Origin: Thermoanaerobaculia bacterium
GTDB lineage: Bacteria > Acidobacteriota > Thermoanaerobaculia > Multivoradales > UBA5704
Length of the DNA stretch: 64,000 bases
Direction: 5' to 3'
Assembly: GCA_044226625.1 (NCBI GenBank)
Contig: JBGAGQ010000003.1
Coordinates: 64,001-128,000, forward strand
In this document: piece by piece, positions 1,055-9,802 of the stretch
Layout: every line of letters starts with the position of its first letter
Numbering within the stretch: position 1 is the first letter of the stretch
Position numbers and translations under genes: made by a program
The notes under the pieces: model-generated
Databases searched by the model: none
What the model was told of the DNA's origin: nothing
Seen by the model: the letters and a program-made list of their open reading frames with translations, nothing else

Positions 1055-2179
1055 CTAACGCCGTTTCGACTCGTCGGTCGAAAGCTTCTCCCAATCCCCT
1101 TCCGGTGCATCCAAGGCGATCGCGAGTCCGCCGTCCGAGCCGACATAGATGGGATCGCGCACCACCCGGACTTTGCCACCACCCACCGCCTGCAGCTCGC
1201 GCTCGAGGCGAGGCCCGAGACCCCGGATCAAGCCGGTGCCGCCGGAGAGGACGACGTTCTGGCGCACCCGCTCCTGGTATTCGGGATCCACCCGGCTCAA
1301 AAGATCGAACATCGACTCGACGAGCGGCGGCAGGAGCGTCTCGCACGCCTGGCGCATCTCCGCCGTGATGTCGATCCTCGTCGGCTTGCCGGCGACCGGC
1401 GCGGTGACCAGGATCGGCGCGAGCGGCTCGCCGACGAAGCTCCCTTCCTCTTTCCAACCGCGGACCATGTGCAGCGAGATGCTCGCCTGCGGATGGCGCT
1501 CTCGGATCAGGCGGAACAGTTGCTCGTCGATCGAATCTCCCGCCTGGGTAAGGGTCCGCTGGTCGTCCTCCGTCGGCAGGCGCCCCTTCATCACGCAGAT
1601 GTCGGTCGTGCCCGCGCCGATGTCGATGATCATCGTATGGAGGAGCTCCTCGAGCCCGTAGGCGACGGCAAACGGCTCCGAGACGATCAGGAGACTGTCG
1701 GCGATCCCTTGCATGGCCTTGCGCACCTGCTGCTTGTTGACCCGCAGCGCTTCGGCCGGCACGCCGACGACGGCACGGACGTGGAAGCTCGAGCGCTCGG
1801 CCGGGTCGACTCCGGCTAACTGGACGAGATGGCGCAGCAGCTCGCGCACCGCCGCTTCGTCTTTTTCCGAGCCGTCCTTGATCAGCCCCTCTTCGAGCGG
1901 CCGATGCAGGTCGAGCATGGTCCGCTGCTCGAGGGCCTCGCGGCCGATCAGCACGCTCTTCTTGAGCACCTTGCGGGCGACCATGTCGAGCGGCCAACCG
2001 ACGTAGCTTTCGACCACGTGGCGCTGGCCGTTGGAGGCGGAGATCGAGCTCCGGGAGGTGCCGAGGTCGATCCCGACGTGAAGGGCTTGCCGGTCGCCCG
2101 GTTTGCCGCTCGGTCGCTCGCTGGATGGGTCGCTCGGTGGGCGTTCGCTCGGTCGGTCGCTCGAAGGGCGGTCGCTCAT
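1055..2179 (-). CDS. MamK-like bacterial actin homolog (MreB/MamK superfamily), 374 aa
   Basis: Phosphate-1 GIDLGTS, connect-1 VSEPFAVAYG, phosphate-2 IDIGAGTTD, adenosine VVLSGG. Segments such as RAVVGVPA, DQRTLTQAGD, FVG..AGKP, ACETLLP, PEYQ..V.QN and DP..G.DGGL.IA follow MamK as I recall it. ATG 2179 has AAAGGA upstream, 7 nt after the amidase stop. Confidence 0.88.
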   Translation of the reverse strand: MSDRPSSDRPSERPPSDPSSERPSGKPGDRQALHVGIDLGTSRSSISASNGQRHVVESYVGWPLDMVARKVLKKSVLIGREALEQRTMLDLHRPLEEGLIKDGSEKDEAAVRELLRHLVQLAGVDPAERSSFHVRAVVGVPAEALRVNKQQVRKAMQGIADSLLIVSEPFAVAYGLEELLHTMIIDIGAGTTDICVMKGRLPTEDDQRTLTQAGDSIDEQLFRLIRERHPQASISLHMVRGWKEEGSFVGEPLAPILVTAPVAGKPTRIDITAEMRQACETLLPPLVESMFDLLSRVDPEYQERVRQNVVLSGGTGLIRGLGPRLERELQAVGGGKVRVVRDPIYVGSDGGLAIALDAPEGDWEKLSTDESKRR

Positions 2180-2186
2180 GAGGGGG

Positions 2187-3206
2187 TCAGGGTCCTTTCT
2201 CCGTGGCGCTCTCGGCGGCCAGGGCGTAACGGCGCACGCCGCGCGCGAGCGCTTCGGCGATGTATTGGCGGTAAAGGGGCTTCGCGAGCAGCTCGGCCTC
2301 GGTCGGGTTCGAGAGCGAAGAAACCTCGGCGAGCACCGCCGGCATCTCGGTCGACACGAGGACCAGGAAGGGGGCGGTCTTGACGCCTCGGTCGGAGAGG
2401 CCTCCGCCGGACGCGCCGACCGCCGCGGAGGCGCGCGACAGAGAGCTGAACAGGGAGGCGTCGATCGACTCGGCGAGGCGCCGCGAGCTCCCCTGCCGAG
2501 CGCCGGCGTAGACCTGGTCGAGCAGCCGGCGAAAATCGGCGACGGCGTACCCGGAGTCCCGGTTTTCGAGCGCCGCGAGGCGATCGAGCTCCGGATCGTC
2601 GGTCGGTCCGAGATAGTAGGTCTCGACCCCTCGCGTGTTGCCACCGGCGATCCAGTTGAGGTGGATCGAGACGAAGAGATCGGCCCGCGCCTGGTTTGCG
2701 ATCCGCGCGCGATCGCGCAACGAAACGGCCCGATCGTCCTGCCGGGTCATCACGACCTCGAAGGAGGAGGCCGCCAGAAGGCGCTCGAGTCGGCGGCCGA
2801 TGTCGAGCGTGACGTCTTTCTCATAGAGGCCGGTGGCGGCGCGGGTTCCCACCGACGAGCCGCCGTGACCCGGGTCGATCGCGATCTTTCGCACCGCAAG
2901 GGGGAAGACCGACGGATCGATCGGGCGCGGCGCCGACTTTCGAACGTTCTCTGCGACCTCGGGTACGTCGCCCGGCGCGCTCATCGCGACCGAGGCGGTC
3001 GGCGCGACGGGCATCAGCGCGGGAGCGAAGAGGCGGGACGACGCGAGCAACGCCACGGGGAGGAGGGCGAGGGCGAGCAACGAGCTCCCCAAGCGGAGGC
3101 GGCGGCTCCGTTTGAGGGTCTTGTGGGGCGTCCCCCTCACCAGCTCGACGTTCTGATCGACGAGCTCGCGCAGCAAACGCTGCTTTAAGCGATCGACGCG
3201 GGCCAT
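2187..3206 (-). CDS. N-acetylmuramoyl-L-alanine amidase (Amidase_3, AmiA/B/C-like) with N-terminal membrane anchor
   Basis: IAIDPGHGG, EKDVTL, TR..D..VSL..R..IAN, FVSIHLN and PAVLAE Zn-amidase motifs; hydrophobic segment LLALALLPVALLA. Confidence 0.92.
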   Translation of the reverse strand: MARVDRLKQRLLRELVDQNVELVRGTPHKTLKRSRRLRLGSSLLALALLPVALLASSRLFAPALMPVAPTASVAMSAPGDVPEVAENVRKSAPRPIDPSVFPLAVRKIAIDPGHGGSSVGTRAATGLYEKDVTLDIGRRLERLLAASSFEVVMTRQDDRAVSLRDRARIANQARADLFVSIHLNWIAGGNTRGVETYYLGPTDDPELDRLAALENRDSGYAVADFRRLLDQVYAGARQGSSRRLAESIDASLFSSLSRASAAVGASGGGLSDRGVKTAPFLVLVSTEMPAVLAEVSSLSNPTEAELLAKPLYRQYIAEALARGVRRYALAAESATEKGP

Positions 3207-3363
3207 ACGGCGCTTCCCTGCCTCGGCGTCTCCCGGCCAGCTCCTCGGGCGCCGATGCGGCCGCGAAGATCCTCGCGCGCTCGTCGACCCCTGCGAACCG
3301 GGAAAAGAGGGGCGAATCTTACTACTACCCGACTCCTTTGTACGGACCCGTTTGCCGGTCCGA

Positions 3364-5022
3364 CTACTTCGGGCCCAACCGGATCACCAGGTCGCTGCCC
3401 GAGACGCTCACGCTCTTGGCGAAGATCTCCGCACCGGCGAGGTCGAAGACCACGTGCAGCTCGTCCGGGCTGTGGTACCCGATTCGGATCTGCGTCAGCT
3501 CGGGGGTCCCTCCCGCCACTTTGGTCGCCGAATAGGCGTGGCGGATTCCCTTCAAGCGCACCAGCTCCCGCGGCGACCCGGTGTCGATCCGGAAATGGGC
3601 GAAGTTCGACGAGCGGATGATGCCGTCGCCTCGAAGCACCACTTCCGTCTCGCCCGCCAGGGCACGAACCGACACCGATCGAAGCTCGGACAACACCGGC
3701 CGCGGAGCTTCCGCGGCGGGCTCCGCGGTCTTGGCAGGGATGGCGGGGACGGGAGTTGAGGGCGCGCCGGAAGTGGGCGGCAGAGTCGTCGCACCGGGCT
3801 TCGCGGGGGCCGGGGTGGTGGCAGCACTCGGCGCGGCCTCCGGCTTCAAACCGTCCGCCGGCGCCGGCATGGGAGTCTCGGTGGGGGGACTCGCTCCCTG
3901 GGCATTCGGCCCCGGCGGAGCGGCCCCCGCGGCGGAATCGGGCGCGCCTGCGACGGGGCCTCCTGGGCTGGCCGGACCCGCCGCGCCCGGCAAGCTTCGG
4001 TACATCGGCTTCCGCTCCGGATTGGCAAAGGCGGCGGGGAGCGGCTCGGGATCGGACTCGCCGAAGAAGTCGTCCCACCACAGGTCTTTGACCCGCCAGG
4101 CGGCGACGCCTCCCAAGAGGAGCGCGAGAAAGAGGGAAGCCGCGAACCAACGCAGCGGACGCCTCCTCTTCCTCTGCACGCGAGCCGCCGGCTCGGGCGG
4201 GATCAGGGCCCCGGTCGTCGTCGAGGCGGTATCGTCGAGCAGCGAAGGGATCGGCCGGAGCGGCACCTCCGGCGGCGGCGCGAGGATCGGCGTCTTACCG
4301 GCCCAGCTGCGCTCGAGCGGGGGCGGCAGCTCGGGAGGGGGGATCGGCACTGCCGCGGGCGGGGCCGTCTGGGGCAAGGACGGGGGCACGGCGAGCTCGG
4401 GAAAGCGGGCCGCAGGAGCCCGATCCCCTGCGGCCGGCGGACCGCTGCGCGGATCGGTGGTCGGTCGGCTCGCGCGCTCCGCGCCTTCGGCCTCGTCGAC
4501 GCTCGCGGCCGCCTCCTCGAAAAGCCGCAGCAGCCGGTCGGCGTCTCGAATCGGCGGCTCCTGCGGCGCGGGCCGCGCCAGCGGTGGCACGGGGGGCGTC
4601 GTCGGTTTCGGCAGGGTGGCCACCGACGGCGTCGAAGGCGGAATCGGCGGCGAGGGATCGAAGGGGACGCCGCCCGATTGGACGTGGCGGTCGACAACTT
4701 TGTAGATCAGCTCCTTGGCCTGGGGGGTCAGCTCGAGGAAGCGCAGCCCCATCCCGGAAATCTGCGAGGCGTCCGGCGCCGGATCACGGGTCCAGACGAC
4801 CTCGCCCCTCCCTTTGATCAGCTCGAAACCGTCCCCCAGACGGAACTCGAAGTCGACCAGGGTGCCCACGGGCGCGGGCTGCTCGGTTCGAATGAAGATC
4901 CCGCCGGGCGAGATGTTCGCGGAGAACTCGCTGATGAAGCCGCTGAACTTCTCGAACTTGAGCTGAACCCGCGTCTCCAACGGTACCCGTCGGGAGTCGC
5001 GAGGAATCGAAGGATCGAGCAT
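3364..5022 (-). CDS. PilZ-domain (TIGR02266-like) protein with Pro-rich linker, one TM helix and C-terminal AMIN-like domain
   Basis: N-terminal RDSRRVP...NISPGGIFI...G.G.VVW...GMGLRF; TM WFAASLFLALLLGGVAAW; C-terminal PRELVRL..QIRIG..ELHVVFDL. Confidence 0.8.
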   Translation of the reverse strand: MLDPSIPRDSRRVPLETRVQLKFEKFSGFISEFSANISPGGIFIRTEQPAPVGTLVDFEFRLGDGFELIKGRGEVVWTRDPAPDASQISGMGLRFLELTPQAKELIYKVVDRHVQSGGVPFDPSPPIPPSTPSVATLPKPTTPPVPPLARPAPQEPPIRDADRLLRLFEEAAASVDEAEGAERASRPTTDPRSGPPAAGDRAPAARFPELAVPPSLPQTAPPAAVPIPPPELPPPLERSWAGKTPILAPPPEVPLRPIPSLLDDTASTTTGALIPPEPAARVQRKRRRPLRWFAASLFLALLLGGVAAWRVKDLWWDDFFGESDPEPLPAAFANPERKPMYRSLPGAAGPASPGGPVAGAPDSAAGAAPPGPNAQGASPPTETPMPAPADGLKPEAAPSAATTPAPAKPGATTLPPTSGAPSTPVPAIPAKTAEPAAEAPRPVLSELRSVSVRALAGETEVVLRGDGIIRSSNFAHFRIDTGSPRELVRLKGIRHAYSATKVAGGTPELTQIRIGYHSPDELHVVFDLAGAEIFAKSVSVSGSDLVIRLGPK

Positions 5023-5146
5023 CGCCGCCGTACCTCACCGCCGGACGGGCTGGCCGACCGGACGCCTTCGTGAACGCTGGTGAACGGCGAGGATCATAGC
5101 AGGGCGGGGGCGACCGCGGGCCGCCGCCCCCAACCCCGCCCGGAGG

Positions 5147-6529
5147 CTAGAAACCGAGTGACCGCTCGCGGGCCAGGAACGCCAGCACCTGGCGGGCGAG
5201 CTCGACCGTAAGGTTCTCCTGCTCGGCGGCGCGCTGAAACAGAATCAGCGCTCCGAGCGCCTCGCGGTGGACCTCGCGCGACTCGAACAAGGGAAGGATC
5301 TCGATGGCTAGCTGCTTGATCTCCGCGGATCGCCTCTGCTGCGCGTAGAGGGTCGCGAGCTCCAACGTGGCGAGTGCCGCGTCGTACCCCATCCTGTGCT
5401 CGTAGAACTCCGCGCGGACCTCGAGCAACACGCTCTCCGCCTCGTCCTCGTGGCCGAGGCCCGCGGCGATCCGGGCTTCGAGCCAACGGAGCCGAATGCG
5501 ATCGACGGGGCTGGAGAGAACGAAAGCGTCCCGGATCTGGGCCAGGCGTCGCGAGGCCTCGTCAAACCGCCCCACCGCGACCATCGCGAACAGCAAGTTG
5601 TAATGGGCATAGGTCTTCGAGAGCCCGTCGGCCTCCACGTCGAGCGGGCGGCCGGGATCCGCCGCTCGGCTCGAGACGGCCGGAAGGCCCGGGTCGGTCG
5701 AGAGATCCGGAGGTTTCGTATCGCCGGAAGGGATCGCGTCGAGGGCGTCGAACTCGTCGATCAGCCCTTCGAGCTCCGCCAGCGTGCCGTCGAGATCGCC
5801 CATCTCCTCCCGGATCTTCGCTCGGGTGAGACGCACGCGGCGCATCGCTGCCGCCGCCCTGGCCTCGTGGAAGAGGACCATCGCGTCGTCGGCGGCGTCG
5901 AGCGCCTCGGGCAACCTCCGTTGGGCCCGCCGGAGCGCCGCTTGGACATGAAGCAGCTCGCCGCGCACTTCCGGAGCGCCGGTCCCACCTCTCTCGATCA
6001 AGGCGAACGCGGTACGTAGTGCCTGGTCGGCGCCCATCAGCTCGCCGAGCACTCGTCGCGAATTGGCCAGATGACCCCACGCTCTCGCGGTGAGGTCGTG
6101 AACCCAGACCGAGTCGTACACCTCCCCGGAGAGCTGCTCGGCGATCCGGACGGCGAGCTCCGCCCGTTCGACCGCCCGGACCGGCTGCTCGACCACGGCC
6201 CGCTTGCTTTCGCGCAGGAGCAGCGAGCAGAGCGCCCAGGAACGAAAGCTCCCGTCCTTCTCCACCCGGTCGAGCTGGGACGCCAGATCGAGCGGCTCGA
6301 GCTGGGCAAGGAGGCCCGGAGCTTCCCGGCCCTCGAACAGAACGATCGACTCGTTCCAGTGCCCAACCTCCTCCTGCAATGCGCGGAGCTCGGCGAACCG
6401 CTCACCGCAGGCGGCGCAGCTCGCTTCCAGATGCGGGGCGATCTCCCGCACGACATCGTCTTGCGGAAGATCGCCCGCGAGCCACCGGGCCAACGTTTCG
6501 ATCGACAAATGACCTCGTTCCGTCTCCAT
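5147..6529 (-). CDS. TPR-repeat protein with N-terminal zf-HC2-like zinc-binding (anti-sigma-like) domain
   Basis: HLEASCAAC motif after HLS.ETLA; helical repeats ARAWGHLANSRRVLG and LRWLEARIAAGLG..AE..L; GAAGGAGG RBS before ATG 6529. Confidence 0.75.
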   Translation of the reverse strand: METERGHLSIETLARWLAGDLPQDDVVREIAPHLEASCAACGERFAELRALQEEVGHWNESIVLFEGREAPGLLAQLEPLDLASQLDRVEKDGSFRSWALCSLLLRESKRAVVEQPVRAVERAELAVRIAEQLSGEVYDSVWVHDLTARAWGHLANSRRVLGELMGADQALRTAFALIERGGTGAPEVRGELLHVQAALRRAQRRLPEALDAADDAMVLFHEARAAAAMRRVRLTRAKIREEMGDLDGTLAELEGLIDEFDALDAIPSGDTKPPDLSTDPGLPAVSSRAADPGRPLDVEADGLSKTYAHYNLLFAMVAVGRFDEASRRLAQIRDAFVLSSPVDRIRLRWLEARIAAGLGHEDEAESVLLEVRAEFYEHRMGYDAALATLELATLYAQQRRSAEIKQLAIEILPLFESREVHREALGALILFQRAAEQENLTVELARQVLAFLARERSLGF

Positions 6530-6567
6530 CCGGCCTCCTTCAGCCCCAGAGTTCTCTCTCTAGATAC

Positions 6568-6599
6568 CATTGTTGCCGGAAGAAGACATTTCGAGACAA
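6568..6599 (-). promoter_or_regulatory. Bipartite promoter-like motif TTGTCTCG-N16-CAACAATG upstream of the TPR gene
   Basis: Plus strand CATTGTTG (6568-6575), 16 nt, CGAGACAA (6592-6599); same architecture recurs at 6963-6994. Confidence 0.6.
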
Positions 6600-6653
6600 G
6601 ATCTTCCGAAGAAAATTCTCGAAACGACGAACCCAAAGCCGATTTCGACGAAA

Positions 6654-6899
6654 TTAGGGCCGGCCGGCGTCCTCTCTCCATCCCGCGGCGAGCGGGCGGC
6701 CCAAGGGATCAAACGAGCCGCCCTCCTCGGCGAACAGGTGGCGAAGCACGCCTCCAGCCCAGGAAACGAAGCTCCCCCAGCCCGTGCCGACGAGCGAGGG
6801 GAACCCTCTGGAGATCGACAACGCGGAGGCGGGCAGAGGTGCCACGAGCAAACCGGCGAAGACGACGGCGACGAGAGAGCGGGAAAGCCTAGAGCGCAT
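6654..6899 (-). CDS. Small secreted peptide (81 aa) with Sec signal peptide and EEGGSFDPLG motif
   Basis: AAGGAG RBS; MRSRLSRSLVAVVFAGLLVAPLPASA signal with ASA cleavage site; Trp-containing amphipathic segment, then GxxDPxG. Confidence 0.75.
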   Translation of the reverse strand: MRSRLSRSLVAVVFAGLLVAPLPASALSISRGFPSLVGTGWGSFVSWAGGVLRHLFAEEGGSFDPLGRPLAAGWREDAGRP

Positions 6900-6962
6900 A
6901 ACAATTCTCCTTGTTCGGCAACAGGTCGGAGGCAGAATGCCCACGCCGTCGCCTCTACAAGA

Positions 6963-6994
6963 CATTGTTGACGCTAAATCGATAACCGGGACAA
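6963..6994 (-). promoter_or_regulatory. Bipartite promoter-like motif TTGTCCCG-N16-CAACAATG upstream of the small peptide gene
   Basis: Plus strand CATTGTTG (6963-6970), 16 nt, CGGGACAA (6987-6994); extra CCGAGACA copies at 7003-7010 and 7025-7032. Confidence 0.6.
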
Positions 6995-7065
6995 AAAATA
7001 CCCCGAGACACAAAAATTCCCTCTCCGAGACATCTCCCGGCAAAACTTTCCCCGCAATTTCGGGT

Positions 7066-8121
7066 CTAGATCGGCTTCGAAGGCTCGAGCGGAGCGCCTG
7101 CGGCAGAGGCGAGAACGGCGGCCCCGAGCAGGCCGGTGCGCGGTTCGAGGACGATCCGCACCGGAACGCGGGCGAGGTAGGAAGCGAATCTACCCTTGGC
7201 CAGGAACGAGCGCAGAAAGCCTCCGGCGACGAGACGATGCCGCACCTTGGGCGCCACACCTCCGCCCAAGAAGATGCCCCCGGTCGCCCCCGCCGCCAGG
7301 GCGACGTTTCCCGCGACCGCCCCATAGATCGAGCAGAACGAATCGAGCGCCCGATCGCAGAGCGCAGATTCCCCTTGGGCGCTGGCGATCGCGATCGCCG
7401 CCGCGGGATCGGCCCCGGAGACCCCGGCGGCTCGATCCGCGAGAGCTTGCTCGACCGGCCGATGCGCCGCGAGACCCCGGCGGTCACGCAGAAACTCGTA
7501 GAGATTCACCAATCCGGGGCCCGAAACCAGCCGTTCGATGCTCACGTGGCCGCCGCTGTCGCCCTCCAGGCGCTCGGAGAGGTAACAGAGAAGTCCCCAT
7601 TCCTCCTCGTCCCGGGCGGCGAAGTCCATATGACCGCCTTCGGTCGCGAGGGTCACCCAGCGCCCGGCAACCTCGGTTTGGAGAGCGATTCCCAATCCGG
7701 TCCCGGCGGAAACCAGCGCCCGGTTTCCCCGGGCGCCCGGCTCTCCTTCTTGGACCTGCTGCAGCTGGTCGGCGGAGAGGCCTTCCAGGCCCGCCGCCGC
7801 CGCCGCGAGATCGTTGACCAGCAGCGCGCGGCCGGACGCCAAGCCGAGCCGCTCCCCGATCGCGTCGCCGTCGAGCTCCGGCCAGGGAAGGTTCGGCGTG
7901 GTCGCGCGATTGTTCCGCACCGGACCCGGAATGCCGAAACAGGCGGCCTGGAGCCCTTCGGAGTCCGAGCCGAGATACGCCGCTGCCGCGGCGCCCAGGT
8001 CGGGAAAATCGAGGCTCCGATAGTCGCGGATCTCCCCCACCGCCTCGAGCCGACCGGACGCGCCGAGGCAGAACCGGCCGAGCCGGATGTGCGTGCCGCC
8101 TACGTCCCCGGCGAGGAACAC
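7066..8121 (-). CDS. glk: Glucokinase
   Basis: LAGDVGGT, GIPGPV, LVND, GTGLG, EGGH.DF, SIERLVSGPGL and GGIFLGGGV motifs; GTG start just after the pgi stop. Confidence 0.92.
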   Translation of the reverse strand: MFLAGDVGGTHIRLGRFCLGASGRLEAVGEIRDYRSLDFPDLGAAAAAYLGSDSEGLQAACFGIPGPVRNNRATTPNLPWPELDGDAIGERLGLASGRALLVNDLAAAAAGLEGLSADQLQQVQEGEPGARGNRALVSAGTGLGIALQTEVAGRWVTLATEGGHMDFAARDEEEWGLLCYLSERLEGDSGGHVSIERLVSGPGLVNLYEFLRDRRGLAAHRPVEQALADRAAGVSGADPAAAIAIASAQGESALCDRALDSFCSIYGAVAGNVALAAGATGGIFLGGGVAPKVRHRLVAGGFLRSFLAKGRFASYLARVPVRIVLEPRTGLLGAAVLASAAGAPLEPSKPI

Positions 8122-8125
8122 CTCC

Positions 8126-9802
8126 CTACTCTCCGCCGGTTCCGAGCGCCCTCGCGAGACGATCGAGCCCTGAGGCGGCGTCGCCTCCGAGATCGATCCG
8201 CAGCACGGGTCTTCCTCGGCCGAGAAGGGCCTGCCGGTCACCGTCCGCTTGGGCCCGGATCAGCCGGGCGAAGGTGTAGTCGGTCTCCGGCACTGGGACG
8301 GGGTCCGCGGGGCGATCGATCAGTTGAAGGAAGCGGCATATCGGCGGCCCCCCCTTGTGCAGCTGACCGGTCGAATGGAGGAAGCGCGGGCCATAGCCGA
8401 ACGTGGTGGCGAGCCGCGTCCGGTCGCGCAGCCGCGCCTGGACCGAGCGCAGGACCGACGTCGCCGCGGGCGTCGGCGCGAGATAGGCGTGGATGCCCAG
8501 ATAGTTGCCGGCCGAGGCGCCGACGAGGAAACGATCCAGCACGTCGCCGAGATCCGGATAGTCGGCGTTTGCCTCCTCGCCGCCGCCGGACAGCTCCAGC
8601 TCCCCCTTCATCGCCCGGCTGGAGAGGTCTTTGGCCAGCTGGACGTCGGGCTGGTCGAACGGCTGGATGCCGAGGACGGCCCCGGCCGCCGCGACCGCGA
8701 GCTCCCAGCGATACATCTCGGCCGACAGATCGAGCCGATCGCCGAGCACGAACGAGGCGGTGGGATGCCCGGCCGCCGCGAGCCGAACGAGGCGTGAGCG
8801 AACCTCCTCCTCTTCGCCCGAAATCGCCAGGCCTACGAAGAAGCGGTCGTCGCCGTACGCCGCCGGTTCGCCCGGCGCCTCGCCCGCGACCGGCACGATC
8901 CCGTGGCCTTGCTTCCCGGTGCTCTCGGCGATCAACTGCTCCAACCACTCGGGAAACGCGGCGAGACCGGGGGAGGTGAGGAACGTGACCTTGTTGCGAC
9001 CCGCCGCCGCGAGCTCGCCGAGCGCTGCGCCAAGCGCGAGCGCCGGGTTGTCGACCTCCGGCACGTCGGGGCCGCAAGCCGCGGCGAGCGCGGCGGCCCG
9101 GTCGAGTAGGCCGGCGAGGTCGGCGCCGATCGCCGCCGCGGGGGCGAGGCCGAACGGCGTGAGCGCGCTGTACCGGCCGCCTACGTCGGCCGGCGCGTTG
9201 AACAACCAGCGGAAGCCGCGCTCGCGCGCGAGCTTCTCGAGCGACGTCGCGGGATCGGTCACCGCGGCGAAGGCGTTGCCGGTCTCCCCTAGACGCGCCT
9301 TCTCGGCTTCTCCCAGCGCGCCCACCCGGTGCCAGAAGTAACGGAAGAAGCTCATCGTCTCGGTCGTTCCGCCCGATTTCGAGGACACGAGGAAGACCGA
9401 ACGCGCCAGGTCGATCCGCCGCGCGAGGTCGACCACCGCGTCCGGGTGGGTGCTGTCTAGGACCCGCAGCACGGGATAGCCCGCCCGGTTGCCGAAGGTC
9501 TCCTGGAACACTTCGGGCGCGAGGCTCGAGCCACCCATACCGAGCACCAGAGCGTGGCGGAATTCGTCGGCGGCGAGCGTGGCGCCGAACGACTCGAGCT
9601 CGGGCAGACGAGCGCGCATGTCGGCGGCGAGCGTGAGCCACCCCAGACGGTCGACGATCTCCGGGGTGTCGGGAGCAGCCCAGAGCGTGGGGTCTTTCGC
9701 CCACAGGCGGTTGGAAAAGCCATCCGCCCGCCACCGCTCCAACCGCCGGGCGACGGCGGCCGCCCCTTCTCCGAGATCCATCGAGACCCTGGTCGTGCTC
9801 AT
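8126..9802 (-). CDS. pgi: Glucose-6-phosphate isomerase (Tal-Pgi-type PGI domain)
   Basis: GMGGSSL, SSKSGGT.ET, VGGRYSAL, EQLIAESTGK, PFDQPDV and GPRFLHSTGQLHKGG. Confidence 0.9.
   Translation of the reverse strand: MSTTRVSMDLGEGAAAVARRLERWRADGFSNRLWAKDPTLWAAPDTPEIVDRLGWLTLAADMRARLPELESFGATLAADEFRHALVLGMGGSSLAPEVFQETFGNRAGYPVLRVLDSTHPDAVVDLARRIDLARSVFLVSSKSGGTTETMSFFRYFWHRVGALGEAEKARLGETGNAFAAVTDPATSLEKLARERGFRWLFNAPADVGGRYSALTPFGLAPAAAIGADLAGLLDRAAALAAACGPDVPEVDNPALALGAALGELAAAGRNKVTFLTSPGLAAFPEWLEQLIAESTGKQGHGIVPVAGEAPGEPAAYGDDRFFVGLAISGEEEEVRSRLVRLAAAGHPTASFVLGDRLDLSAEMYRWELAVAAAGAVLGIQPFDQPDVQLAKDLSSRAMKGELELSGGGEEANADYPDLGDVLDRFLVGASAGNYLGIHAYLAPTPAATSVLRSVQARLRDRTRLATTFGYGPRFLHSTGQLHKGGPPICRFLQLIDRPADPVPVPETDYTFARLIRAQADGDRQALLGRGRPVLRIDLGGDAASGLDRLARALGTGGE

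Follow-up and report, generated by a model that had tools for sequence, protein, structure and literature searches.

The stretch analysed here (the window) comprises 64,000 nucleotides of contig JBGAGQ010000003.1 (positions 64,001 to 128,000, forward strand) from the genome of a Thermoanaerobaculia bacterium of the phylum Acidobacteriota (GenBank assembly GCA_044226625.1). Its minus strand carries two adjacent genes, one for a small protein of 81 amino acids with a predicted Sec signal peptide and the other for a soluble protein of 460 amino acids that joins an N-terminal domain of the zinc anti-sigma type to a tetratricopeptide repeat (TPR) superhelix (Table 1). The original prediction had proposed that these genes form a peptide-signalling pair analogous to the RRNPP systems of Firmicutes, in which a processed peptide binds the TPR protein and modulates a sigma factor. 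The elements that it attributed to the small gene, i.e. an AAGGAG ribosome-binding site, a Sec signal, a Trp-bearing helix and the sequence EEGGSFDPLG, are all present, and the gene for the 460-aa TPR protein does lie directly downstream.

The 81-aa open reading frame (ORF) is enclosed in a spurious ORF of 277 amino acids (positions 6654-7487). Its GC content by codon position (0.66/0.61/0.80) resembles that of the neighbouring real genes, and the intergenic DNA on its flanks has 48-51% GC. Orthologs were found in five of seven genomes of the same genus (49-65% identity; E 4e-19 to 2e-13), all five directly upstream of an ortholog of the 460-aa protein gene, and the AAGGAG sequence is invariant in a DNA alignment of six same-genus sequences. 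As judged from its sequence, the 81-aa ORF is a real, conserved gene. The encoded protein starts with positive charge followed by a hydrophobic core (residues 9-27; Kyte-Doolittle 19-residue mean of 2.27) and the residues P-A-S-A before L27, and a signal peptide cleavage site is predicted after A26, which is kept in at least 90% of 26 aligned relatives. In the AlphaFold2 model, with a mean predicted local distance difference test score (pLDDT) of 65.5, a helix formed by residues 38-58 (hydrophobic moment 1.08) is followed by an unstructured tail that carries the core sequence, in which G60 and P65 are invariant and D64 and G67 are kept in at least 90% of the same 26 relatives. Residues 72-81 look like a decayed second copy of this core, and three orthologs (L033, L035 and L037) retain a second full copy. 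No Pfam or NCBIfam family matched the 81-aa protein at E<=1, and a single-sequence search of a set of 5.8 billion proteins returned only the query itself. A profile of the 26 relatives matched 330 public database proteins, all of them unnamed or annotated as 'hypothetical protein', and among the matches listed the only Pfam domain was one unrelated one.

The gene for the 460-aa protein begins 124 nt downstream of the 81-aa ORF and has its own AAGGAGG sequence. The protein contains no transmembrane-grade stretch (maximum 19-residue mean of 1.02), which agrees with the cytoplasmic location that had been proposed for it, and its AlphaFold2 model is an all-helical superhelix predicted with a pLDDT of 92.2 and a predicted template modelling score of 0.90. 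When the protein was analysed alone, all Pfam TPR matches were below threshold; in an alignment of the focal protein with 99 homologues (alignment A1, 100 sequences), TPR_12 was matched by 92, the MalT-like TPR by 37, HTH_31 by 15 and zf-HC2 by 7 of the 100 sequences. Relatives of this receptor, as we will call it, are numerous, with 4826 clusters of 50% identity at E<=0.001 and 583 at E<=1e-30 among 1.84 billion representatives scanned. A protein atlas returned only unnamed Acidobacteriota/Aminicenantota clusters at 0.85-0.86, which is under the level that counts. The nearest solved structures to the receptor model are peptide-binding TPR superhelices, i.e. LGN at the top (Z 22.9), the peptide-bound RapJ-PhrC complex (4gyo; Z 21.0, root-mean-square deviation 3.9 over 294 residues), NprR (Z 20.2) and the Rap protein of phage phi3T with its pheromone (Z 20.1); because helical repeat proteins often score high Z values, these figures show the class of fold and not the function. 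A complex predicted between the receptor and residues 27-81 of the small protein scored 0.01 against a mark of 0.32, a value that was obtained without controls and speaks neither for nor against binding.

The N-terminal domain of the receptor had been likened to the zf-HC2 anti-sigma domains, and this likeness was borne out by profile comparison. The N-terminal profile matched the entire anti-sigma domain of ChrR (chain 2q1z_B) with an E value of 1.7e-4, positions 4-77 of the profile aligning with ChrR residues 3-73, and the His and Cys residues of both pair up in the printed alignment; the next matches were RsiW, DdvA and 3hug_B, at E 0.11-0.63. The putative zinc ligands H7, H33, C38 and C41 are invariant across 33 sequences, and the motif H33-x4-C38-x2-C41, with H7, is one residue longer than the classical H-x3-C-x2-C. 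The Pfam zf-HC2 model gives no score to the focal 460-aa protein, and the sole paralog of the same genome that it scores is C132, which has the classical H-x3-C-x2-C spacing (22.3 bits versus a cut-off of 22.2).

The focal pair is not a solitary arrangement. The host genome (6.6 Mb, 67.7% GC) harbors 24 paralogs of the 460-aa protein, and 17 of them have their own gene for a signal-peptide/DPxG protein alongside. A peptide profile seeded with the small ORFs beside 13 paralogs and with 11 small ORFs from related genomes gave 19 matches at E<0.002 among the 78,544 six-frame ORFs of this genome, and 17 of the 19 were located within 600 bp of a receptor paralog; of the other two, one lies beside a paralog fragment truncated at the end of a contig and one stands alone. 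Five of the six matches that had not been used as seeds also adjoin a receptor paralog, and weaker matches (E>=0.03) are not adjacent to paralogs. Since only about 1% of the genome lies that near a paralog, the adjacency of peptide and receptor genes is far from chance. In agreement with this observation, when 80 loci from other metagenome-assembled genomes were retrieved through the receptor alone, using an alignment of 11 sequences, a DPxG ORF adjoined the receptor gene in 78 of them, mostly upstream on the same strand and downstream in 7, and one of the two loci that lack it has no upstream flank. Conserved adjacency together with a G-x3-D-P-x-G motif, a point on which the original prediction had staked its refutation, was thus found both among the paralogs and in the loci of other genomes.

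When 151 genomes sampled from the phylum were searched with the receptor profile at E<=1e-10, scoring at most 11 candidates per genome, matches were obtained in the genome under study, in two of the three others of its order and in six of eight of its class; in other classes there were two among 139, both of them weak (about 1e-12). All 80 loci from other metagenome-assembled genomes are labelled Thermoanaerobaculia, Thermoanaerobaculaceae, Thermoanaerobaculum, Holophagales or Acidobacteriota. The focal pair is best read as one copy of a large paired family that is specific to the Thermoanaerobaculia lineage.

Some further loci depart from the common arrangement. The one clear match to the DPxG small proteins with no receptor paralog detected nearby (E 2e-9) lies at C60:15866-16168 (plus strand), and is either an orphan peptide gene or the companion of a receptor too diverged for the query. 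At C80:24518-24709 (minus strand), a stop-to-stop ORF of 64 residues carries two G..IDPVG motifs and no signal peptide; it could be a relative that lacks the leader, or an unrelated match arising by chance. The peptide gene at L060:2421-2878 is split across two overlapping frames, one with the signal peptide and helix and the other with the cores, which suggests a frameshift or an assembly error. Loci L082 and L085 are double modules, in which a DPxG peptide gene accompanies each of two tail-to-tail receptor genes on the strand of that receptor.

The small proteins of the family (70-125 aa) share one layout. They begin with a signal peptide that has a small-x-small site; a spacer leads on to a W..L..LW helix, which is followed by one to five cores of the form G-x1-x2-(I/L)-D-P-x3-G, generally preceded by (K/D)-E. 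Among 74 related small proteins, 69 show a hydrophobic N-terminal window, 72 contain at least one strict core and 55 at least two, and the protein ends exactly at the last core Gly in 29 and with one or two further residues in 24. The cores of multi-core precursors were compared in a non-redundant set of 90 such precursors. Identity at x1 was 0.67 within precursors versus 0.22 between them, and at x2 0.59 versus 0.20, whereas x3 (0.37 versus 0.35) and position -2 were not shared within precursors; none of 2000 permutations reached the observed within-precursor similarity. The sharing of x1 and x2 but not of x3 indicates that these two positions carry an identity specific to each precursor, and the x1-x2-hydrophobic triplets of 15 precursors from the host genome are nearly all distinct.

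A link to sigma factors is found at paralogs of the focal receptor. The host genome contains 43 Sigma70_r2 matches, and in one cluster (L118, C76:152000-160000) two zinc/TPR paralogs overlap the upstream ORF of an extracytoplasmic function (ECF) sigma factor by 4-8 nt. This cluster starts with a sigma-54 activator gene (338-1399) and an ECF sigma gene (1523-2056) overlapping the first zinc/TPR paralog (2049-3395), continues with a second ECF sigma gene (3600-4145) and a DPxG peptide gene (4270-4563), and ends with a third ECF sigma gene (4690-5217) that overlaps the second zinc/TPR paralog (5214-6602). The order of sigma and receptor genes is the classical sigma/anti-sigma arrangement, the overlaps make both paralogs translationally coupled, by sequence, to ECF sigma genes, and the DPxG peptide gene directly precedes one of the two sigma/receptor operons. 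Other paralogs bear a different output domain. The four paralogs of the host genome that lack the zinc motif all have an XRE-type helix-turn-helix (HTH) instead, and each of them is accompanied by a convergent peptide gene with Cys-bracketed cores (GC..DP.G.C). Because HTH paralogs go with Cys cores and zinc paralogs with non-Cys cores, output domain and peptide class change together.

The reading that we favor, and to which we give about an even chance, is that of an RRNPP/Rap-like pair in which an exported propeptide and a cytoplasmic receptor act through sigma-factor sequestration. The small gene would encode a pre-pro-peptide that, as its signal peptide suggests, is exported by the Sec pathway; removal of the signal peptide and then of the pro-region with its Trp helix would release at least one short peptide based on G-x1-x2-hydrophobic-D-P-x3-G, in the focal case a single one around GGSFDPLG. 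The peptide would return to the cytoplasm and bind the concave face of the 460-aa TPR superhelix, and binding would alter the hold of the N-terminal domain on its partner, as occurs in Rap proteins. A candidate component of an oligopeptide-binding importer is encoded in the genome (SBP_bac_5, E 1.6e-90), which makes peptide import possible. Because the focal N-terminal domain is of the zinc-binding class I anti-sigma type, the output at this locus would be to sequester or set free an ECF sigma factor whose gene lies elsewhere, and that of the sister HTH paralogs would be DNA binding by the XRE-type domain. The identity of each of the approximately 20 pairs of a genome would reside in the core positions x1 and x2. 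That these would amount to a multi-channel peptide language of Thermoanaerobaculia, with some 20 orthogonal pairs per genome told apart by x1 and x2 and with sigma-factor or DNA-binding outputs, is a more tentative proposal, which we consider possible rather than probable.

A number of observations weigh against this reading. Seven of the 24 paralogs have no detectable peptide gene of their own, no sigma gene adjoins the focal receptor gene, and an ECF sigma gene lies within 3 kb in only 3 of the 80 related loci. Helical repeat proteins often reach high structural Z-scores. The six residues that follow the core are 0.39 identical within precursors, which suggests that recent duplication contributes to the similarity of the repeats. 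The skeleton of the core, i.e. G, D, P, G and a mostly-Ile position, is far more conserved than usual in RRNPP pheromones, and such rigidity could reflect a shared protease, a transporter or a structural role instead. The host is diderm, and an intercellular peptide would need two passages through the outer membrane. Finally, processing, re-import and binding are steps that we infer.

Conserved adjacency by itself would be explained equally well if the small exported protein were itself the final product, such as a peptide used as an antimicrobial or in competition, a surface peptide that adheres or binds metal or, in the Cys variants, a disulfide-looped effector, and the anti-sigma/TPR or HTH/TPR protein were only its transcriptional regulator, sensing something else and never touching the peptide. 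The separate conserved elements upstream of each gene (see below) suggest separately controlled transcription units, the Cys-bracketed cores would form disulfide loops outside the cytoplasm, where an external action would be exerted, and some 20 diversified copies per genome also recall polymorphic toxin or bacteriocin loci. However, the pairs have no conserved neighbouring gene for immunity, export or modification (at the focal locus the neighbours encode a glucokinase and a PilZ protein), and a peptide-binding type of TPR superhelix, akin to those of Rap and LGN, would be left with no ligand. The joint change of receptor type and peptide type described above, together with the frequent ending of the small protein exactly at the core, typical of propeptides with an active core, also speaks against it, and we regard the end-product explanation as unlikely, if the most serious of the rivals.

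An improbable alternative places the contact before export. The TPR protein would hold the unexported precursor, by its helix or its core, in the manner of a chaperone, and export would free or load the anti-sigma domain, so that the switch would report export capacity or the state of the envelope and not cell density. Such secretion-coupled switching has precedents in the logic of ExsC/ExsE and of FlgM, the small protein is made in the cytoplasm, where the soluble receptor also resides, and neither re-import nor passage through the outer membrane would be needed. Nevertheless, Sec substrates are normally short-lived in the cytoplasm, tandem repeats of the core would be of no obvious use, and some 20 diversified pairs with precursor-specific x1 and x2 are hard to square with a general export signal. 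That the cores are modified as in ribosomally synthesized and post-translationally modified peptides, with the TPR protein as a scaffold or recognition factor, would suit short repeated cores behind a leader-like region and the Cys-rich variants, but this alternative, already raised by the original prediction, proved weak and is very improbable, because the small proteins have a classical Sec-type signal peptide with a small-x-small site and not a cytoplasmic leader, the partner bears regulatory (anti-sigma or HTH) domains, and Pfam found no radical S-adenosylmethionine, YcaO, lanthipeptide or similar enzyme among the focal neighbours (glucokinase, PGI-like and PilZ proteins) or in the C76 cluster (sigma factors and the sigma-54 activator).

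Table 1. Features of the peptide/receptor locus, with positions in the window.
Feature	Position	Strand	Evidence
81-aa exported pro-peptide gene, stop codon included (export predicted)	6654..6899	-	ORF and translation, in-frame GC at third codon positions 0.80, orthologs
AAGGAG ribosome-binding site, 7 nt ahead of the ATG	6907..6912	-	read off the sequence
Signal peptide, residues 1-26, predicted cleavage after P-A-S-A	6822..6899	-	hydrophobic core, residues 9-27
Trp-bearing amphipathic helix, residues 38-58	6726..6788	-	AlphaFold2, block pLDDT up to 82
Core peptide EEGGSFDPLG, residues 58-67, single copy of the family motif	6699..6728	-	motif statistics and alignment
460-aa soluble anti-sigma-domain/TPR protein gene, stop codon included	5147..6529	-	ORF, paralogs, AlphaFold2 model
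N-terminal zinc anti-sigma-type domain, residues 1-77, ligands H7, H33, C38, C41	6299..6529	-	profile versus ChrR
TPR superhelix spanning roughly residues 92-460, with a disordered insert (roughly 270-294)	5150..6256	-	secondary structure and pLDDT
Conserved non-coding block before the peptide gene (TTGTCCCGG...CAACAATGTCTTGTAGAG)	6953..6994	-	six-sequence same-genus alignment
Conserved non-coding block between both genes (TTGTCTCGAAA...GGCAAC), promoter- or operator-like	6572..6599	-	six-sequence alignment

Two non-coding blocks are conserved at the focal locus, one upstream of the peptide gene, whose full TTGTCCCGG...CAACAATGTCTTGTAGAG pattern occurs once in the genome, and one between both genes. 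Across the related loci, the sequence TGTC[ACT]C[GA][AT]A (often GTGTCACGAAA) occupies the intergenic region of the pair in 41 of 65, against a density of 0.12 per kb over the loci as a whole, and in 25-30 of 64 loci the peptide gene is preceded by GCAAC[CA][TA]T together with a palindromic element of the GGCAT.CCGCC type. These elements could be promoters, operators or leader structures. A promoter type shared by both genes (TTGTC.C-N17-CAAC) was considered; the pattern has nine occurrences in the genome, two of them at the focal locus and one before the paralog C46, and the idea was dropped because the two upstream regions differ in their conserved elements over 65 loci. Rfam gave nothing at E<=1 over positions 4900-7300, the sigma-70 promoter scan returned 0 sites, and terminator-like sites were no commoner than in shuffled sequences. 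Downstream of the receptor gene, positions 3364-5022 (minus strand) encode a protein of 552 amino acids. Its N-terminal domain is a PilZ domain of the TIGR02266 paralog type (E 1.5e-24), and it also has a long low-complexity middle rich in Pro and Ala and a single hydrophobic segment. Two ORFs upstream of the peptide gene (positions 7066-9802, minus strand), one for a glucokinase (E 3.8e-89) and the other for a PGI-family protein, overlap by about 115 nt as listed; both appear unrelated to the peptide pair.

Peptide signalling through cytoplasmic TPR receptors is regarded as a speciality of Firmicutes, and to our knowledge almost no cell-to-cell signals have been described from abundant soil phyla such as Acidobacteriota. 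If the favored reading is true, the phylum gains a class of signals that is genetically encoded and easily synthesised, with thousands of metagenome clusters and about 20 pairs in a single genome, and anti-sigma factors gain a new type of input, a peptide. The propeptide/TPR logic would also have arisen, or have spread, outside the monoderm bacteria. Under the more tentative multi-channel proposal, the system would be the first case of RRNPP-style cytoplasmic peptide sensing outside Firmicutes, in a diderm phylum, as well as the first peptide-gated soluble anti-sigma factor. Although the organisms are uncultured, the favored reading is open to direct test with recombinant proteins and synthetic peptides. 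In the literature searched, supplementary tables, which might list such proteins, being outside its scope, we found no description of an anti-sigma/TPR protein paired with an exported DPxG peptide and no zinc anti-sigma protein that has a soluble TPR sensor and an exported peptide as its partner, in keeping with the claim that the system is apparently uncharacterised.

Among known systems, the pair most resembles those of the RRNPP (or RRNPPA) family, Rap-Phr being the closest and NprR-NprX, PlcR-PapR and AimR-AimP further members, in which the gene of an exported propeptide likewise adjoins that of a cytoplasmic TPR receptor of 250-500 amino acids. RRNPP propeptides carry the pheromone at or near their C-terminus, and the motif of the small proteins is found at the same place. 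An N-terminal effector domain followed by TPRs is a plan shared with Rap, which acts on a partner protein, and with the HTH members of RRNPP, which act on DNA, and HTH-TPR proteins also occur in the focal family; the structures of peptide-bound RapJ, NprR and phage Rap are matched with Z values of 20-21. Tandem copies of the pheromone, as seen here for the cores, are described for phage Rap-Phr systems (PMC11343458). There are also clear differences. RRNPP systems belong to Firmicutes and their mobile elements, whereas the present host is a diderm of the Acidobacteriota; in the portion available, a large RRNPP survey screened Firmicutes and viruses only (PMC10075063) and, likewise in the part at hand, a paper on RRNPPA evolution treats the family as one of Firmicutes (PMC9765709). 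The focal protein starts with a zinc anti-sigma domain, which is neither an HTH nor the three-helix domain of the Rap type and which we did not find described for RRNPP; the cores keep a fixed G...DP.G skeleton, and one genome can hold as many as about 20 pairs. Neither Pfam nor NCBIfam gave a hit to a family model dedicated to RRNPP, and in a search of the receptor profile against PDB sequences NprR appeared only at E 0.13-0.41, through generic TPR repeats. The RRNPP analogy drawn by the original prediction gains from the HTH-TPR members of the family, the structural likeness to Rap and NprR and the tandem cores, but does not extend to the N-terminal domain of the focal protein, and the earlier interpretation as a whole is partly supported.

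Eukaryotic peptide-binding TPR proteins of the LGN/Pins type, which bind extended peptides in their inner groove, are the top structural match (Z 22-23, deviation of about 4 over about 295 residues); in contrast to the focal receptor they have no regulatory N-terminal domain, and at about 14% identity the similarity is one of fold only. A kinship with Rhs/YD-repeat toxins through their DPxGL motif was rejected as a chance resemblance. Two D-P-x-G motifs can occur in one polypeptide in Rhs as well, but the Rhs motif is embedded at a fixed spacing in a very large shell protein, where it serves self-cleavage, whereas the small proteins have 70-125 amino acids, a variable spacing and no YD repeats.

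The N-terminal domain finds its relatives instead among the zinc anti-sigma factors ChrR, RsrA, RsiW, RslA and DdvA, with a profile match over about 75 residues in which the four invariant His/Cys ligands align with those of ChrR, and the coupling of two paralogs to an upstream ECF sigma gene is also a feature of this class. It differs from them by its H-x4-C-x2-C spacing, by the location of most members, the focal one included, away from sigma genes, and by its sensor part, which is a soluble TPR superhelix and not a cupin, a membrane span or nothing at all. In the available part of a preprint on the reclassification of ECF sigma factors, TPRs are mentioned only for the extensions of ECF42 and for a FecR-like protein of ECF267. 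Taken together, these comparisons suggest, as their best-supported reading, that the system works like an RRNPP pair fitted with a domain of the zinc anti-sigma type, and would thus combine propeptide/TPR receptor signalling with zinc anti-sigma control.

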